Assembly: GCA_934754495.1 (NCBI GenBank) | Contig: CAKVHW010000001.1 | Span: forward strand, 2,011-66,010 | Direction: 5' to 3' | DNA from: an uncultured Clostridia bacterium | GTDB taxonomy: Bacteria; Bacillota; Clostridia; Christensenellales; UBA1242 | DNA length: 64,000 nucleotides | Part shown: one piece after another, positions 27,261 through 58,172 of the stretch | Layout: each line of letters opens with the position of its first letter | How positions within the stretch are numbered: the first letter of the stretch is position 1 | Notes under the pieces: model-generated | Database searches by the model: none | What the model saw: the letters and a program-made list of their open reading frames with translations, nothing else | Told to the model about the DNA's origin: nothing | Made by a program: the position numbers and the translations under genes

Positions 27261-29006
27261 TTACTCCTTTTCTTTAATAAGTTGAAGTCCAACATCTTTT
27301 AATTGTTGTTCGGTCACCCTACTTGGAGCACCCATCATAAGGTCTCTAGCATTTTTGTTCATAGGGAATGCAATAACTTCTCTAATAATATCCTTTTGAG
27401 TAACAAGCATTAGCAAGCGGTCGAAACCGAATGCACAACCAGCATGGGGAGGTGCACCATATGAGAATGCATTATATAATGCCCCAAATTTACTCTTAAC
27501 AGTATCTTCATTATATCCAACCATTTCAAAAGCCTTAACCATAAGTTCTTGGTCGTGGTTTCTAACTGCACCACTAAGAGATTCATACCCATTAATAACA
27601 AGGTCAAATTGATATGCCAAAATGTCAAGTGGATTTTTTTCAAGCAATGCTTTCATTCCGCCTTGTGGCATACTAAATGGATTGTGTGCAAAGTCTAAGT
27701 TTCCAGTATCTTCGTTGATTTCAAAGAATGGGAAATTATCTACCCAACAGAAAGCAACTTTGTTTTTATCAATCAATCCTAGGCTTTCACCAAGTTCGTT
27801 TCGAAGCACATTAGCAAGTTTAATTACAAGCGGTTTTTCATCAGCAACAATAAATATGCTTTCTCCACCTTTTAAATCAAATTCTTTTATTAAATCAGTT
27901 TTATTTTTATCGGTTAGGAATTTAACAATACTACCACTAAATTCGCCATCAGCATATTTTAGCCAAGCAAGACCCTTACCTTCATAACTTACAATTAGTT
28001 TGCCAAGTTCGTCATAGTATTTCCTAGACTTTTCCCCCGCATTAGCACTTATGGCTTTAATGGTTTTACCTTTAAATGCATTAAATTCGGTGTCAGCAAA
28101 AATGTTTGTAATATTATGCACAATAAGTGGGTTTCTTAAGTCTGGCTTATCACTACAATATTTTTCAATTGCTTCACGATATGGAATATGCACAAATGGT
28201 GCTTTTGAAATTTCAAAATCTGTAAATTCTTTAAACAATGCGGTTGCAAATTCTTCGCATGCACTCATAACATCTTCTTGAGTTGCAAAACTCATTTCCA
28301 TATCTATTTGATAAAATTCACCTGGGGTACGGTCAGCACGAGCGGCTTCATTTCTAAAACAAGGTGCAATTTGGAAATATTTATCAAAACCACTAACCAT
28401 TAAAAGTTGTTTGAATTGTTGTGGTGCTTGTGGAAGTGCATAAAATTCGCCTGGTGCATTAATTGTAGGAACAATATAATCTCTTGCTCCTTCTGGACTC
28501 GAACTTGTAAGGATTGGAGTTTGAACTTCCAAAAATCCCATTTCGGTCAATTTGTTTCTAGCAAAATTTAACATCTTTGCACGTTTTACAATAAGTTCGT
28601 GAGTGTCTGGATTTCTAAGGTCAAGATATCTATATTTTAATCTAAGTTCTTCCTTAGTATTTGGCGCATCGGCAATTTCAAAAGGCAAAACACTTTGACA
28701 TTTGCCTAGCACTGTAAGGCTATTTACTTCTACTTCAATATCACCTGTTTCCATTTTAGGGTTTTTACTATATCTTTCTAGCACTGTACCACTTACTGAA
28801 ATTGTGCTTTCCTTATTAACACCATTAATCATGTTTTCGTCTTTCAACACTAGTTGGGTAAGTCCAAAGTGGTCACGAAGTGTAACAAATGTAAGTCCGC
28901 CAAGTTTTCTTATGCTATTCACCCAACCGGCTAGTCTAACACTTTTACCCACATCGCTCATTCTAAGCTCGCCACAATTATGTGTTTTGTAAATATTTTC
29001 TTTCAT
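27261..29006 (-). CDS. aspS: aspartate--tRNA ligase (bacterial type with insertion domain)
   Basis: 581 aa with RLAGWVNSIRKLGGLTFVTLRD, QSPQ-like PQAPQQFKQLLM, FRNEAARADR and GAPPHAGCAFGFDRL. Confidence 0.95.
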   Translation of the reverse strand: MKENIYKTHNCGELRMSDVGKSVRLAGWVNSIRKLGGLTFVTLRDHFGLTQLVLKDENMINGVNKESTISVSGTVLERYSKNPKMETGDIEVEVNSLTVLGKCQSVLPFEIADAPNTKEELRLKYRYLDLRNPDTHELIVKRAKMLNFARNKLTEMGFLEVQTPILTSSSPEGARDYIVPTINAPGEFYALPQAPQQFKQLLMVSGFDKYFQIAPCFRNEAARADRTPGEFYQIDMEMSFATQEDVMSACEEFATALFKEFTDFEISKAPFVHIPYREAIEKYCSDKPDLRNPLIVHNITNIFADTEFNAFKGKTIKAISANAGEKSRKYYDELGKLIVSYEGKGLAWLKYADGEFSGSIVKFLTDKNKTDLIKEFDLKGGESIFIVADEKPLVIKLANVLRNELGESLGLIDKNKVAFCWVDNFPFFEINEDTGNLDFAHNPFSMPQGGMKALLEKNPLDILAYQFDLVINGYESLSGAVRNHDQELMVKAFEMVGYNEDTVKSKFGALYNAFSYGAPPHAGCAFGFDRLLMLVTQKDIIREVIAFPMNKNARDLMMGAPSRVTEQQLKDVGLQLIKEKE

Positions 29007-29016
29007 ATTTTCTCCT

Positions 29017-29055
29017 TAAAATTAAAAATACCCTTGATAAAAATGTCAAGGGTAT
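29017..29055 (-). terminator. intrinsic terminator-like hairpin immediately upstream of the aspS RBS (candidate attenuator)
   Basis: Minus strand: ATACCCTTGA (29055-29046), loop CATTTTTA, TCAAGGGTAT (29037-29028), then TTTTTAATTTT, then AAGGAG and the aspS ATG at 29006. Confidence 0.6.
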
Positions 29056-29104
29056 AATTTTTAAAATAAATAAATTATAATTGCATTAAAAAATGTACCC
29101 ATTA

Positions 29105-29161
29105 TTAAAATGTGTATAAATTATTATTGTTGCAATCATCATTTAATTTAATTTTTAACAT
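29105..29161 (-). CDS. candidate leader peptide MLKIKLNDDCNNNNLYTF (18 aa)
   Basis: Hand-translated. ATG at 29161-29159 with AAGGA (29175-29171) 9 nt upstream. Codons 7-14 are AAT GAT GAT TGC AAC AAT AAT AAT. TAA stop at 29107-29105, 4 nt before the putative antiterminator arm. Confidence 0.35.
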   Translation of the reverse strand: MLKIKLNDDCNNNNLYTF

Positions 29162-29188
29162 ATTGTTTTTTCCTTAAATGTTATAAAA

Positions 29189-29217
29189 AGTTTACACCTT
29201 GACAGCAAACTTGTCAA
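29189..29217 (-). promoter_or_regulatory. sigma-A-type promoter upstream of the aspS leader
   Basis: Minus strand: TTGACA (29217-29212), 17-nt spacer, TAAACT (29194-29189). The -35 hexamer is part of the inverted repeat TTGACA..TGTCAA. Confidence 0.45.
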
Positions 29218-30021: not shown

Positions 30022-30225
30022 CTATAAATCCTTTTTGCATAAATACTTATGCACTATTTTTATTGATTATATATTATATAATAAGCACTTACAAAAAACA
30101 AATAAATTAACAAAACTTAATCACACAAAAACAATATTATACATAATATGAAGTGTGTATAGGTTGCATACGCTATTCAACTTATACACCCTCCCCTTCT
30201 TCCAACTTTTTTAAGTTGTTTATAT

Positions 30226-30262
30226 AAAAACCCCCTATTTTAGCAAATAATAGGGGGTTTTT
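30226..30262. terminator. bidirectional intrinsic terminator
   Basis: A5-CCCCCTATT-loop-AATAGGGGG-T5 (stems 30231-30239 / 30249-30257). Confidence 0.75.
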
Positions 30263-30277
30263 GTTTAAAAGTATAAG

Positions 30278-40325: not shown

Positions 40326-40403
<78 letters not shown>

Positions 40404-40423
40404 ATATTTAATTTACGAGTACT

Positions 40424-40452
40424 AGTATAAAATAATATTATGTGTTTGTCAA
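40424..40452 (-). promoter_or_regulatory. sigma-A-type promoter for the initiator tRNA
   Basis: Minus strand: TTGACA (40452-40447), 17-nt spacer, TATACT (40429-40424). Confidence 0.5.
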
Positions 40453-40629
40453 TAGTTTTTGTTAATTTTAAACATATAATATAATTTATTGGTCACCAAA
40501 CAATAAAAAATTGTAATATGTTGTCAAAAAAAATTGCAACATGTTTTTATACAATATATAATTCATGTTTTAATTTTTTGCCTAAAATAGTAAATATTTT
40601 AAAAAAAATTAATAAATTTAAAAATACTC

Positions 40630-40658
40630 TTGACATAAAATACAAACTATTGTATTAT
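40630..40658 (+). promoter_or_regulatory. sigma-A-type promoter for the tRNA-Met / tRNA-Glu pair
   Basis: TTGACA (40630-40635), 17-nt spacer, TATTAT (40653-40658), about 20 nt before the tRNA 5' end. Confidence 0.55.
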
Positions 40659-40677
40659 TACATTGTCTAAAATTTGT

Positions 40678-40754
40678 GGCGGCGTAGCTTAGTTGGTTAT
40701 AGCATTCGGTTCATACCCGAAAGGTCGTAGGTTCGAATCCCACCGCCGCTACCA
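40678..40754 (+). tRNA. tRNA-Met, elongator type (anticodon CAT; tRNA-Ile2 not formally excluded)
   Basis: GGCGGCGTAGCTTAGTTGGTTATAGCATTCGGTTCATACCCGAAAGGTCGTAGGTTCGAATCCCACCGCCGCTACCA. 77-nt cloverleaf with encoded CCA. The anticodon loop TTCATAC is like elongator Met. Confidence 0.8.
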
Positions 40755-40785
40755 AACTAATGCTATTTAGTTTTAAAAGTTTTAT

Positions 40786-40860
40786 GGTCCCATGGTCAAG
40801 CGGTTAAGACACCACCCTTTCACGGTGGTATCAGGGGTTCGAGTCCCCTTGGGACTACCA
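40786..40860 (+). tRNA. tRNA-Glu (anticodon TTC)
   Basis: GGTCCCATGGTCAAGCGGTTAAGACACCACCCTTTCACGGTGGTATCAGGGGTTCGAGTCCCCTTGGGACTACCA. 75 nt with encoded CCA. Confidence 0.9.
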
Positions 40861-56176: not shown

Positions 56177-56289
56177 TTAGTTTTTTAAAAATAGGTGCTA
56201 CAACACAAGTGGTTGTTGTTACAAAATGGTTACAAATCAACAGCCCCACTTAATGAAATAATGCTAAAAAAGTATTGTGGCAAGAAAAT

Positions 56290-56320
56290 AAAAAAGACCC
56301 AAATTAACGGGTCTTTTTTT
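56290..56320. terminator. bidirectional intrinsic terminator
   Basis: A5-AGACCC-loop-GGGTCT-T7. Confidence 0.75.
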
Positions 56321-56378
56321 AAAAACAAAATAACATGATTATAATTCAATTATCAGAATTATTATTGTTTTATTATCA

Positions 56379-58172
56379 TTAAATATTAGATGTTAAAGCA
56401 ATCTTTTTACCAGTAATTTTAACACGTGGTTGGTTAGGTTTTGCCACACCAATTTGTGTGCCTTCTGCACTAAATGAATTAACAGAGCCAATCTCACCAG
56501 ATGTTTTACCTTCAATCAAAACAAGATATGATTGAATAGGAAGTTTTGCTTCAATTTTTCCGTTTTTAGTGCTTACATAATAAGGAATATTTTCGGCAAA
56601 CGATGTAGGAAGAAGTCCTGCACTTTCAGTTGATGCATAATCAATTGAATCAAATAATTTTTTAACAGTAAGTTTTACATTGGCATCGCCAGTGCAAACA
56701 ATTCTAATTGGATTGCCATTAGTTGTTGCGGTAATCTTACCGTCTTTAGATGTGATTTCAGAATAGAAGTATCTTGCACCTTCGCTACCCCTAACACCTT
56801 TAATTAATGGTAAATTAGAAGCATCATAACGAGTAATTGCATTTACTGTAATACTACCTTTTTTGCTGTAGAATATACCATCTTGGTAATATTCGCCAAC
56901 CTTAATGTCGCCGTATGTTGTATACACAATAAGTGAAGATGTTTCGGAATACTCTCTATCTTCGGCTGTGAAGCCTTTCATTGGGTAATATCCGCTTTCA
57001 CCAATTGTAACATCACCATTTTCGCTTGTGATAGATGCTTGATGAGTAAGGTGTTTAATATTAACACTGCCGTACTTATTGCCAAGACCAAGTTTTCCTA
57101 AAACTTCGTCAACTTCAACTACTGCACTTTCGGTGAAAATTGTGTTTTCATAAACCTTTGTTGTGCCAGATTGTGTATATTTGTAGCTGCCGTCTTCGTA
57201 TGTATTCTTAACACGGCTAGTTGAGTTTAAAGTGCCAATTTTTAGTGTGCCTGTTGTTGATTTATATAAAAATCCGCTTTCGCCACAAACAACTTCGTTT
57301 GCATCAAACTTAACATTTTTTCCAATAACTTCCATGCCCTTTTGTGCTTCAAGTTTTTTAAATTTGTAAGAAGCGTTTTGAGAGTTTAGTGAAAGTTTTC
57401 CTTTAGTAACAGTAACACTATCAAATTGAGTAAAGTCAAAAGTTCCGCCGTTTGTTGTGATATCTAGATTTTCAAAACTTCTATTTTTTTCAATTACATT
57501 TATGCTACTTCCAAAGTTTCCAATAATTGCACTACCCTTGTTGGTTTTGATTTTTAATGAATTAACATTAATTGGAAGTACTTCTTTAGTTATTGCATCA
57601 GTAAGAGCATTTTTTGTTTCTCTTTCACCTGCTCTAAATTCAATATCTTTATCTCCAGTAGTTATGTTTAGGTCGTATGATGCAGAATGAAAGAATGGAA
57701 GCCTAATGTACATGGTGTTAAGTTTTTTGTAAGATAGCCAACCTTCTTGTTCTATAAGTGTAATTTCAATGTTGTATACTTTGCGTCCTTCGCTATCAAC
57801 CGAACTATATGCTTTAATTGTTTGGTCTGGTGTAACAACCGCCGATTTTTTTTGTGTTTCTGGGTCAACAGTTGCTTTTAAAAAGCCCATGTAAGCACTA
57901 GATGTTGTTATTTCCAAATTAGCATCAGAATCAATAGGCAAAAGCACAACTCCATAGTTTTTGGTGTTAACCTTAATGCTAATTCTTTCCATATCACTAG
58001 GAATGGCATTTTTATAATGCACCTTATCTTCAAAAGACACATTTCTAAAATAGTAGCCAAACAAAGTAGAATTTTTAGACAAATACAAAAATCCCACACC
58101 AAGTGCAAATATAAACACTATTGACACCAAAACAAGTGCCGTATAAACAAGTATACCTTTTAAGGCTTTCAT
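56379..58172 (-). CDS. membrane-anchored beta-rich protein (possibly DUF4097/adhesin-like)
   Basis: 597 aa. N-terminal TM (ILVYTALVLVSIVFIFALGVGFLYL), then a long S/T/G/N-rich region of predicted beta-strand repeats. Family call is tentative. Confidence 0.5.
   Translation of the reverse strand: MKALKGILVYTALVLVSIVFIFALGVGFLYLSKNSTLFGYYFRNVSFEDKVHYKNAIPSDMERISIKVNTKNYGVVLLPIDSDANLEITTSSAYMGFLKATVDPETQKKSAVVTPDQTIKAYSSVDSEGRKVYNIEITLIEQEGWLSYKKLNTMYIRLPFFHSASYDLNITTGDKDIEFRAGERETKNALTDAITKEVLPINVNSLKIKTNKGSAIIGNFGSSINVIEKNRSFENLDITTNGGTFDFTQFDSVTVTKGKLSLNSQNASYKFKKLEAQKGMEVIGKNVKFDANEVVCGESGFLYKSTTGTLKIGTLNSTSRVKNTYEDGSYKYTQSGTTKVYENTIFTESAVVEVDEVLGKLGLGNKYGSVNIKHLTHQASITSENGDVTIGESGYYPMKGFTAEDREYSETSSLIVYTTYGDIKVGEYYQDGIFYSKKGSITVNAITRYDASNLPLIKGVRGSEGARYFYSEITSKDGKITATTNGNPIRIVCTGDANVKLTVKKLFDSIDYASTESAGLLPTSFAENIPYYVSTKNGKIEAKLPIQSYLVLIEGKTSGEIGSVNSFSAEGTQIGVAKPNQPRVKITGKKIALTSNI

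Follow-up and report, generated by a model that had tools for sequence, protein, structure and literature searches.

The question raised by nucleotides 29017-29217 of a 64,000-nucleotide (nt) stretch of DNA from an uncultured Clostridia bacterium (contig CAKVHW010000001.1; the whole stretch is called the window below) is what a short open reading frame (ORF) rich in asparagine (Asn, N) and aspartate (Asp, D) codons does between a promoter and aspS-asnS, the genes for the synthetases that charge tRNA-Asp and tRNA-Asn. It is proposed that the region is a ribosome-mediated leader-peptide attenuator, which would adjust aspS-asnS expression to how much charged tRNA-Asn and tRNA-Asp is available, and we put the probability of this reading at roughly 0.8. 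The same interpretation had been offered in an earlier note made from the DNA letters, and it was supported here, the support being comparative and computational throughout. The evidence consists of the parts and their conservation, the covariation of a leader helix and of the terminator, the outcomes of constrained folding, and a codon content that tracks the downstream genes.

The promoter, the AAGGA sequence, the 18-codon ORF with Asn or Asp at seven of eight consecutive codons, the terminator and the aspS ribosome-binding site were each found where the earlier note had placed them, and the coordinates of all elements noted agreed with a minus-strand reading of the window. The parts are as follows.

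29217-29189, minus strand: promoter, with the -35 box TTGACA (29217-29212), a 17-nt spacer and the -10 box TAAACT (29194-29189); 10/12 in the promoter scan
29175-29171, minus strand: Shine-Dalgarno (SD) sequence AAGGA of the leader, 9 nt 5' of the leader ATG
29161-29105, minus strand: leader ORF, from the ATG at 29161 to the TAA stop (29107-29105); 18 codons plus stop, peptide MLKIKLNDDCNNNNLYTF
29143-29120, minus strand: putative regulatory codon run, codons 7-14, AAT GAT GAT TGC AAC AAT AAT AAT; Asn/Asp at 7/8
29152-29130, minus strand: region 1, predicted 5' strand of the anti-antiterminator (RNAalifold), overlapping the N/D codons; core UGAUUGCA at 29138-29131
29116-29096, minus strand: weak local hairpin UAC-a-CAUU/AAUG-g-GUA, spanning the stop codon and GGGUA, with the U run next
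29100-29086, minus strand: region 2a, predicted 5' strand of the antiterminator, GGGTACATTTTTTAA (as RNA GGGUACAUUUUUUAA), beginning 4 nt past the stop
29086-29060, minus strand: region 2b, predicted 3' strand of the anti-antiterminator; core UGCAAUUA at 29085-29078
29064-29050, minus strand: region 3, predicted 3' strand of the antiterminator, TTAAAAATTATACCC (as RNA UUAAAAAUUAUACCC); 29055-29050 are common to the terminator 5' arm
29055-29018, minus strand: intrinsic terminator, a stem of 10 base pairs (bp), ATACCCTTGA (29055-29046)/TCAAGGGTAT (29037-29028), then TTTTAATTTT
29017-27261, minus strand: aspS with its SD sequence AAGGAG (29017-29012) and ATG at 29006; coding sequence 27261-29006, NCBIfam NF001750 aspartate--tRNA ligase, 722 bits
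25866-27257, minus strand: asnS, 3 nt past aspS; NCBIfam NF003037 asparagine--tRNA ligase, 600 bits
29233-30021: SDR oxidoreductase gene, the upstream neighbour, whose stop codon lies 15 nt from the -35 box

The identity of the downstream genes, which the earlier note had named as aspS and asnS, was thus established by the NCBIfam equivalog models, and the two are presumably co-transcribed. The features of an attenuator that can be tested in sequence were all found: an ORF with a ribosome-binding site near a promoter, clustered codons, a terminator, an antiterminator, an anti-antiterminator and the placement of the stop codon.

The codon run and its conservation

The caution in the earlier note, that mini-ORFs rich in AAT are readily produced by AT-rich DNA, was not borne out. 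Asn and Asp codons account for 7.7% of the trinucleotides of the window, and the probability of finding at least seven in eight is about 1.2e-7 per position. In the window, 549 ORFs of 10-35 codons begin with ATG, and the leader alone among them exceeds four N/D codons in any eight. When both strands of about 700 kb, comprising the window and 92 related loci, were scanned for short ORFs with an SD sequence and at least 5/6 N/D codons, 18 were obtained: 16 leaders of aspS-asnS and two leaders of asnA-asnS, and nothing else. The observation is far from chance.

The relatives were sampled through AspRS, with one genome per species and a further 12 contigs found through AspRS homologues. They are uncultured gut Clostridia, deposited as Clostridia, Christensenella sp. 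or Candidatus Onthoplasma. The 16 aspS-asnS leaders are those of the window and of 15 relatives (L001, L002, L004, L008, L012, L016, L201-L204, L207 and L209-L212) whose AspRS is 74-100% identical to that of the window, and across this range the intergenic sequence around the leader elements diverges. A comparison of aspS upstream regions, which the earlier note had suggested as a check, showed that all 16 keep the ORF with its N/D run, the terminator and the GGGU(A) arm. Their order is the same throughout, namely a near-consensus promoter, SD, N/D ORF, stop codon, GGGU(A), terminator and aspS, and the gene order VanW-SDR-aspS-asnS is common to the leader loci wherever the contig is long enough.

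The promoter scores 10-12/12 and lies 21-30 nt 5' of the leader ATG in 16/16 loci; an SD-like GGAG, AGGA or GGTA at similar spacing is likewise present in every one. The ORF is 12-20 codons long, the peptides of the relatives including MLRIKLNDDCDNSLYTF, MRIRLNDDCNNNNNAF, MIFNQNDNCNNNDSAH, MFIKLNDNNLNDDNDTH and MKIILNDDNNNI, and it holds 5-9 N/D codons, with both Asn and Asp represented in 16/16. Most substitutions in the run either leave the amino acid unchanged (AAT/AAC, GAT/GAC) or exchange N and D codons. The peptide is poorly conserved outside the run, where even the Leu codon just before it varies (TTA, CTA, CTT, TTG). Over the same 16 spans, 32 stop codons fall in one noncoding frame and 76 in the other. 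TAA, TAG and TGA each serve as the leader stop, which is 2-5 nt 5' of GGGU in 13/16 leaders and overlaps it in one; GGGU itself is invariant in 16/16. Terminators of -8.4 to -15 kcal/mol follow in all 16, ending 17-33 nt 5' of the aspS ATG (71 nt in L202).

Leaders were not found everywhere in the sample. Three of the 12 contigs obtained through AspRS homologues (L205, L206 and L208) have no leader; their aspS belongs to the arrangement yidC-jag-aspS-trmE, with a gap of 13-23 nt in front of it and no adjacent asnS, from which it was deduced that the locus has been rearranged several times in the group. Several other relatives have aspS alone. The 5' untranslated region of L026, a relative with aspS-asnS, contains an AU-rich hairpin and a U run (attgca...tgcaattttttt). 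In the metagenome scan with the motif ACCCAT-N(14-32)-RTTRTYGCARTYRTCRTT, no true leader was present among the matches listed. These matches (L081-L200, for example L083, L088 and L090) were swamped by an unrelated sequence abundant in the human gut, aacgatgattgcaacaat...atgggt (…gcaaacgatgattgcaacaatatcgtccataagcattttctgttttatgggtt…), which looks like part of a gene and fits the scan pattern by chance. Weak covariance-model matches in the window at 1716-1784, 30137-30264 and 56289-56379 (E 0.13-0.7) were dismissed, as no N/D ORF is present there.

Competing helices and the position of the ribosome

A helix that does not appear in the earlier note was found between the N/D codon region and the segment just past GGGUA. 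In the RNAalifold structure of the first seven leaders, GAUUGCA over the Asp-Cys codons pairs with UGCAAUC just past the GGGUAC-U-run. The conserved Cys codon within the N/D run is attributed to this pairing, UGC in the helix core being held by RNA structure, and it is absent from L016, L210 and L211, where the helix uses other bases. Variants occupy the same position: GACAAU:AUUGUU in L016 and L211, AUAACAAUUU:AAAUUGUUAU in L210, GACUAUAA:UUGUAGUC in L204 and GAUUGCAAUAA:UUAUUGCAGUC in L002. In the window, the duplex of regions 1 and 2b amounts to -13.1 kcal/mol.

Since MAFFT misaligns the helix strands of the divergent L204, L210, L202, L016 and L211, cognate/noncognate duplex tests and a model-fitted alignment were used instead. 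In the model-fitted alignment, compensatory changes were observed at 6/8 pairs of the 1:2b core and 8/10 pairs of the terminator, or 14/18 together, and the covariation score for the helix core plus terminator was 0.386; shuffles gave 0.18 (0/500), and slid partners no more than 0.085. Such an alignment is biased to the structure it was fitted to, and an alignment-free test is therefore given as well: cognate 1:2b strands have a mean duplex energy of -13.5 kcal/mol versus -9.9 kcal/mol for noncognate strands (permutation p = 5e-5). By this covariation, helix 1:2b would make the element a classical three-helix attenuator.

The second helix, the antiterminator, is formed by GGGUA and the U run of region 2a with the A run and UACCC of region 3, which flanks and starts the terminator 5' arm. 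The earlier note had described it as 5 bp, a mismatch, 1 bp, a mismatch and seven A-U pairs. The 5-bp and 7-bp segments were reproduced by RNAduplex; the middle is instead a 3x3 internal loop, and the duplex totals -10.5 kcal/mol in the window, where the terminator hairpin has -12.8 kcal/mol. Nor is this A-U-rich antiterminator especially weak, as had been suspected, since it reaches -9.4 to -13.7 kcal/mol in 14/15 leaders (L016, -6.4), values comparable to those of the terminators. Cognate strands again paired better than noncognate ones (p = 0.009), and for 14/15 leaders a shuffled region 2a equalled the native energy in no more than 12/300 trials. The GGGUA:UACCC core is invariant, with a U-G wobble in four leaders.

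Along the RNA the order is 1 < 2a < 2b < 3 < 4, so that 1:2b and 2a:3 cross and are mutually exclusive. The weak hairpin at the stop codon has a counterpart drawn in 11/16 leaders, at -2 to -4 kcal/mol and no better than shuffles; with its U run it could possibly be a sequestrator of 2a or a pause or timing hairpin. A (U)ACAC motif just 5' of the stop (window 29111-29116) is kept at the RNA level and lies past the stop in L016 and L211. The only pairing found for it is a weak one with GGGUA.

The effect of a ribosome was modelled by holding 28 nt single-stranded, from -15 to +12 of the first base of the A-site codon, in transcripts cut just 5' of the terminator 3' arm. With the ribosome on the N/D codons, the probability (P) of 2a:3 was about 0.9-1.0 in nearly all leaders; at the stop codon it was 0.00 in 14/16. 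These are the two outcomes predicted in the earlier note, a ribosome on the run giving the antiterminator and a ribosome at the stop covering the GGGUA arm and giving the terminator. In free RNA, 1:2b dominated and 2a:3 was near zero in about half of the leaders. The switch was abolished by shuffling the segment from stop to terminator, the mean change in P being 0.38 for native and 0.03 for shuffled sequences.

The following sequence of events is proposed. RNA polymerase starting from the 29217-29189 promoter would make a transcript whose leader of 18 codons would be translated while the RNA emerges, with three helices in competition: 1:2b as anti-antiterminator, 2a:3 as antiterminator and 3:4 as terminator. 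When Asn-tRNA or Asp-tRNA is scarce, a ribosome would stall on the N/D run (29143-29120) and cover region 1; the free region 2a could then capture region 3 before region 4 is made, and the polymerase would read through into aspS-asnS. With ample charging, the ribosome would reach the stop codon 4 nt 5' of GGGUA and cover 2a, and after its release 1:2b would re-form. Either way, the terminator would fold and transcription would stop. We infer translation of the ORF, stalling that depends on charging, and a suitable timing of polymerase and ribosome.

Several observations weigh against this mechanism. The 16 leaders do not count as independent cases, L207 and L212 being nearly identical and the window and L001 being close, and the invariance of the GGGUA:UACCC core means that it carries no covariation information, only conservation. 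The L016/L211 sub-type departs from the scheme in three respects: its stop codon is 19-20 nt 5' of GGGU and so out of the expected placement, its helix 1:2b is weak, and a ribosome at the stop fails to block the antiterminator (P 0.45-0.51). In the window itself, P for 2a:3 was only 0.25 with the ribosome at the first N/D codon, rising to 0.68 in the middle and 0.99 at the last. Full-length equilibrium folds favor the terminator in every state (P at least 0.8 in nearly all, lowest 0.57), from which it follows that the antiterminator must act as a kinetic trap during transcription. Both the leader ORF and a T-box are missing from the aspS-asnS loci of three close relatives (L003, L006 and L026, AspRS 78-81% identical), indicating that the element is dispensable. 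Attenuation of this kind also needs a ribosome that keeps pace, and the coupling in Bacillus subtilis is loose, with runaway transcription, according to passages of two papers (PMC13323073, PMC7858274).

T-boxes, an asparagine-only leader and rival explanations

In 14 more distant relatives, a T-box signature, GGTGGNACCGCG, was found before aspS at the same position, with asnS adjoining in most. They are listed here.

L011, L022, L052, L056, L064, L079, at about 2700-2960: T-box leaders that reach the gathering score of Rfam RF00230
L058, L065, L069-L071, L073, L074, L076: further loci with the T-box signature

Two more T-box relatives score 80-82 bits. L011, the closest T-box relative (AspRS 75% identical) and the best aligned, has a specifier that aligns to GAC, an Asp codon. 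The register of the specifier is ambiguous in L065 and L076, being GAC or AAC by eye and ACA by alignment, and that of L076 could be AAC (Asn). The T-boxes at this position in relatives suggest that a sensor of tRNA charging is usual there in the wider group, and on sequence comparison the N/D leader appears to hold the T-box position in one sub-lineage.

The leader itself bears no sign of a T-box, as the earlier note had stated. RF00230 was not matched in the window at the gathering score, in the window leader at E <= 10, or in the five leader loci scanned (L001, L004, L008, L012 and L016), and the RF00230 scan detected neither a Stem I with its specifier loop nor the T-box sequence AAUUAGGUGGNACCGCG in the window leader. 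The Rfam models Trp_leader, His_leader, Thr_leader, Leu_leader, Phe_leader and the Lactococcus Leu/Phe leader gave no match to it even at E <= 10, and no credible Rfam family was found for it at either the gathering or the permissive threshold. Weak matches to preQ1-II, PyrR and others were set aside as terminator-centred noise, with 10-19 bits compared to cut-offs of 41-79. The sole Rfam matches in the 64-kb window are three tRNA genes at 40329-40857, one on the minus and two on the plus strand.

A leader with Asn codons only was located by weak extra matches of the covariance model in L067 and L068 (E 0.018 and 0.056).

L068:4870-5065 and L067:4880-5075: Asn-only leader; a stand-alone aspS lies about 140-150 nt upstream

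Its order is TTGACT-17-TATAAT, GGGGAG, an ORF, a stop codon 1 nt 5' of GGGUUUU, and a terminator. The ORF, MIKFINNNNNNNLKHIC (or ...HIS), contains Asn codons at seven positions in a row and lacks Asp codons, and the genes that follow are asnA (TIGR00669, 328 bits) and asnS. In the folds, a helix over the N codons and the terminator form if the RNA is free or the ribosome is at the stop; with the ribosome on the Asn run, UGGGUUUU pairs with AAACCCA, in L068 even in the full-length minimum-energy fold. This leader is regarded as a sister element and as a natural control for codon specificity. It would be difficult to account for leaders whose codons match the genes behind them if those codons did not act as the sensor. 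Between the Asn-only attenuator and asnA (L068:5254-5352; L067:5276-5375) there is another short ORF with an SD sequence, MRKTNAVAGEEDNNILHLRGKN, and the first ATG of the asnA ORF is overlapped by a 12-bp hairpin, GCAUUUAAGGGG/CUCCUUAAAUGC. Together they may represent an extra, translational layer of control.

These data were also weighed under other explanations. The leader could be a switch made of RNA only, with the ORF incidental to a helix of the GAUUGCA type. The switch would answer a ligand, an uncharged tRNA or a protein, such as AspRS or AsnRS acting on the mRNA that encodes it, in the manner of Escherichia coli ThrRS. Part of the ORF is indeed constrained as RNA, as seen from the Cys UGC in the helix core, lost in L016, L210 and L211, and the ACAC motif by the stop falls outside the ORF in L016 and L211. 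Such a switch does not, however, account for an SD sequence, an ATG, an open frame and a stop near GGGU kept in 16 leaders although the other frames are dense in stops, nor for a run that varies only synonymously or between N and D. An Asn-only run is moreover paired with asnA-asnS and a mixed N and D run with aspS-asnS, and the leader matches no Rfam family, the T-box included. This explanation is considered very unlikely. A translated leader could alternatively sense the general status of translation, through slow ribosomes, antibiotics or a TnaC-like arrest on free Asn or Asp, rather than tRNA charging. The architecture alone is silent on the cause of stalling, and passages of two papers on inducible resistance leaders in Firmicutes describe the same layout (PMC6851288, PMC9226507), which was counted in favor of this explanation. 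A general sensor is nevertheless difficult to reconcile with regulated genes that are the synthetases for the amino acids of the clustered codons (asnA-asnS for the Asn-only form), with a peptide in which the N/D run alone is conserved, and with relatives that have an amino-acid-specific T-box at the same position; it was judged slightly less probable still.

It is finally conceivable that there is no attenuation at all, the hairpin ending the SDR oxidoreductase gene, the aspS promoter lying at or after the hairpin, and the mini-ORF being due to chance. Only 15 nt, without a terminator, separate the end of the SDR gene from the -35 box, a TTGACA lies within the terminator stem of the window, and the hairpin scores as a terminator on the plus strand too. 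Against this, in 16/16 loci the leader ORF is separated from the SDR gene by a 10-12/12 promoter, the promoter scan was empty in the 17-33 nt from terminator to aspS ATG, and chance cannot explain a conserved ORF, its N/D run and the covarying helix 1:2b. The TTGACA in the stem, raised in the earlier note as an alternative aspS promoter, was rejected, since it is not conserved and is absent from most orthologues (e.g., CCCTTAAT or CCCAAGA). This last explanation is the least probable of the three and hardly credible. The plus-strand score concerns window positions 29028-29055, where 12 pairs are followed by AATTTTTAAA; no convergent plus-strand gene ends there, and the score probably just reflects symmetric A/U flanks.

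Comparison with known systems

The proposed attenuator can be set beside the regulators of the same genes, the same bacteria and the same mechanism. In common with the RF00230 T-box before aspS(-asnS), it has the position, the genes, a terminator/antiterminator output and, as proposed, a tRNA-charging signal. A single codon is read by the T-box (GAC in L011), which binds uncharged tRNA directly; the leader would respond to codons of two kinds, Asn and Asp. Leader-peptide attenuators for His have been predicted in Firmicutes by comparative genomics only, where they replace T-boxes or other regulators, before a hisS paralogue plus hisZ in bacilli and before his operons in the Bacillus cereus group, Peptostreptococcaceae and Erysipelotrichales (PMC2965389, PMC9413887). 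Unlike the Asn/Asp leader, they are specific for histidine. The ilv-leu attenuator of Staphylococcus aureus, whose Leu-rich peptide represses the synthesis of branched-chain amino acids according to part of one paper (PMC5794164), differs in being Leu specific, in controlling a biosynthetic operon and in its unrelated sequence.

An aspS "tRNA synthetase leader" appears in a study of Shewanella, where no leader peptide is given for it. In the literature searched, which covered full text and only thinly the subscription journals, no leader with Asn/Asp codons was found, and none for aspS, asnS or asnA. A prior description is therefore likely, though not certain, to be absent. It seems probable that the leaders constitute the first described family of Asn/Asp leader-peptide attenuators, which would have arisen at the T-box position in a lineage of uncultured gut Clostridia (Christensenella-like) and whose codons track the downstream genes.

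Such a family would add Asn and Asp to the short list of amino acids sensed through leader peptides, and aspS-asnS would be the second synthetase operon under classical attenuation, after pheST. It would also offer an evolutionary example in which the place that a T-box takes in some genomes is taken in related ones by a sensor of charging with a different mechanism. Attenuation in Firmicutes is believed to be for the most part independent of the ribosome, because transcription can outrun translation in these bacteria. A conserved ribosome-dependent attenuator in Clostridia would provide a direct way to ask whether coupling operates; if the proposal is true, ribosome and polymerase are coupled closely enough in this lineage for the position of the ribosome to decide termination. 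The covariance model and the ORF rule could be used to annotate such leaders in metagenome-assembled genomes from the gut.

The closest functional parallel is E. coli pheST, in which the pheM leader peptide precedes synthetase genes and the codons are those of the enzyme's own amino acid. The leader described here resembles it in standing before aminoacyl-tRNA synthetase genes with codons that match the charged amino acids. It differs from pheST (Phe, Proteobacteria) in reading Asn plus Asp in Clostridia, with two synthetases and two kinds of codon, and no relationship in sequence or through Rfam was found. Mixed codons have a precedent in the thr and ilv leaders, which combine codons for more than one amino acid. 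The attenuators of the E. coli trp, his and thr operons (Trp_leader, His_leader and Thr_leader in Rfam) use helices 1:2, 2:3 and 3:4, with the codons in strand 1 and the stop by strand 2, and the same three-helix logic is predicted here. In contrast to these biosynthetic operons, strand 2 is split, with 2a inside the loop closed by 1:2b, and exclusion would be achieved by crossing helices rather than by shared nucleotides. What is new is the amino acid specificity and the target genes; the mechanism proposed is the textbook one, and the element would belong to the class of the E. coli trp, his, thr and pheST attenuators.

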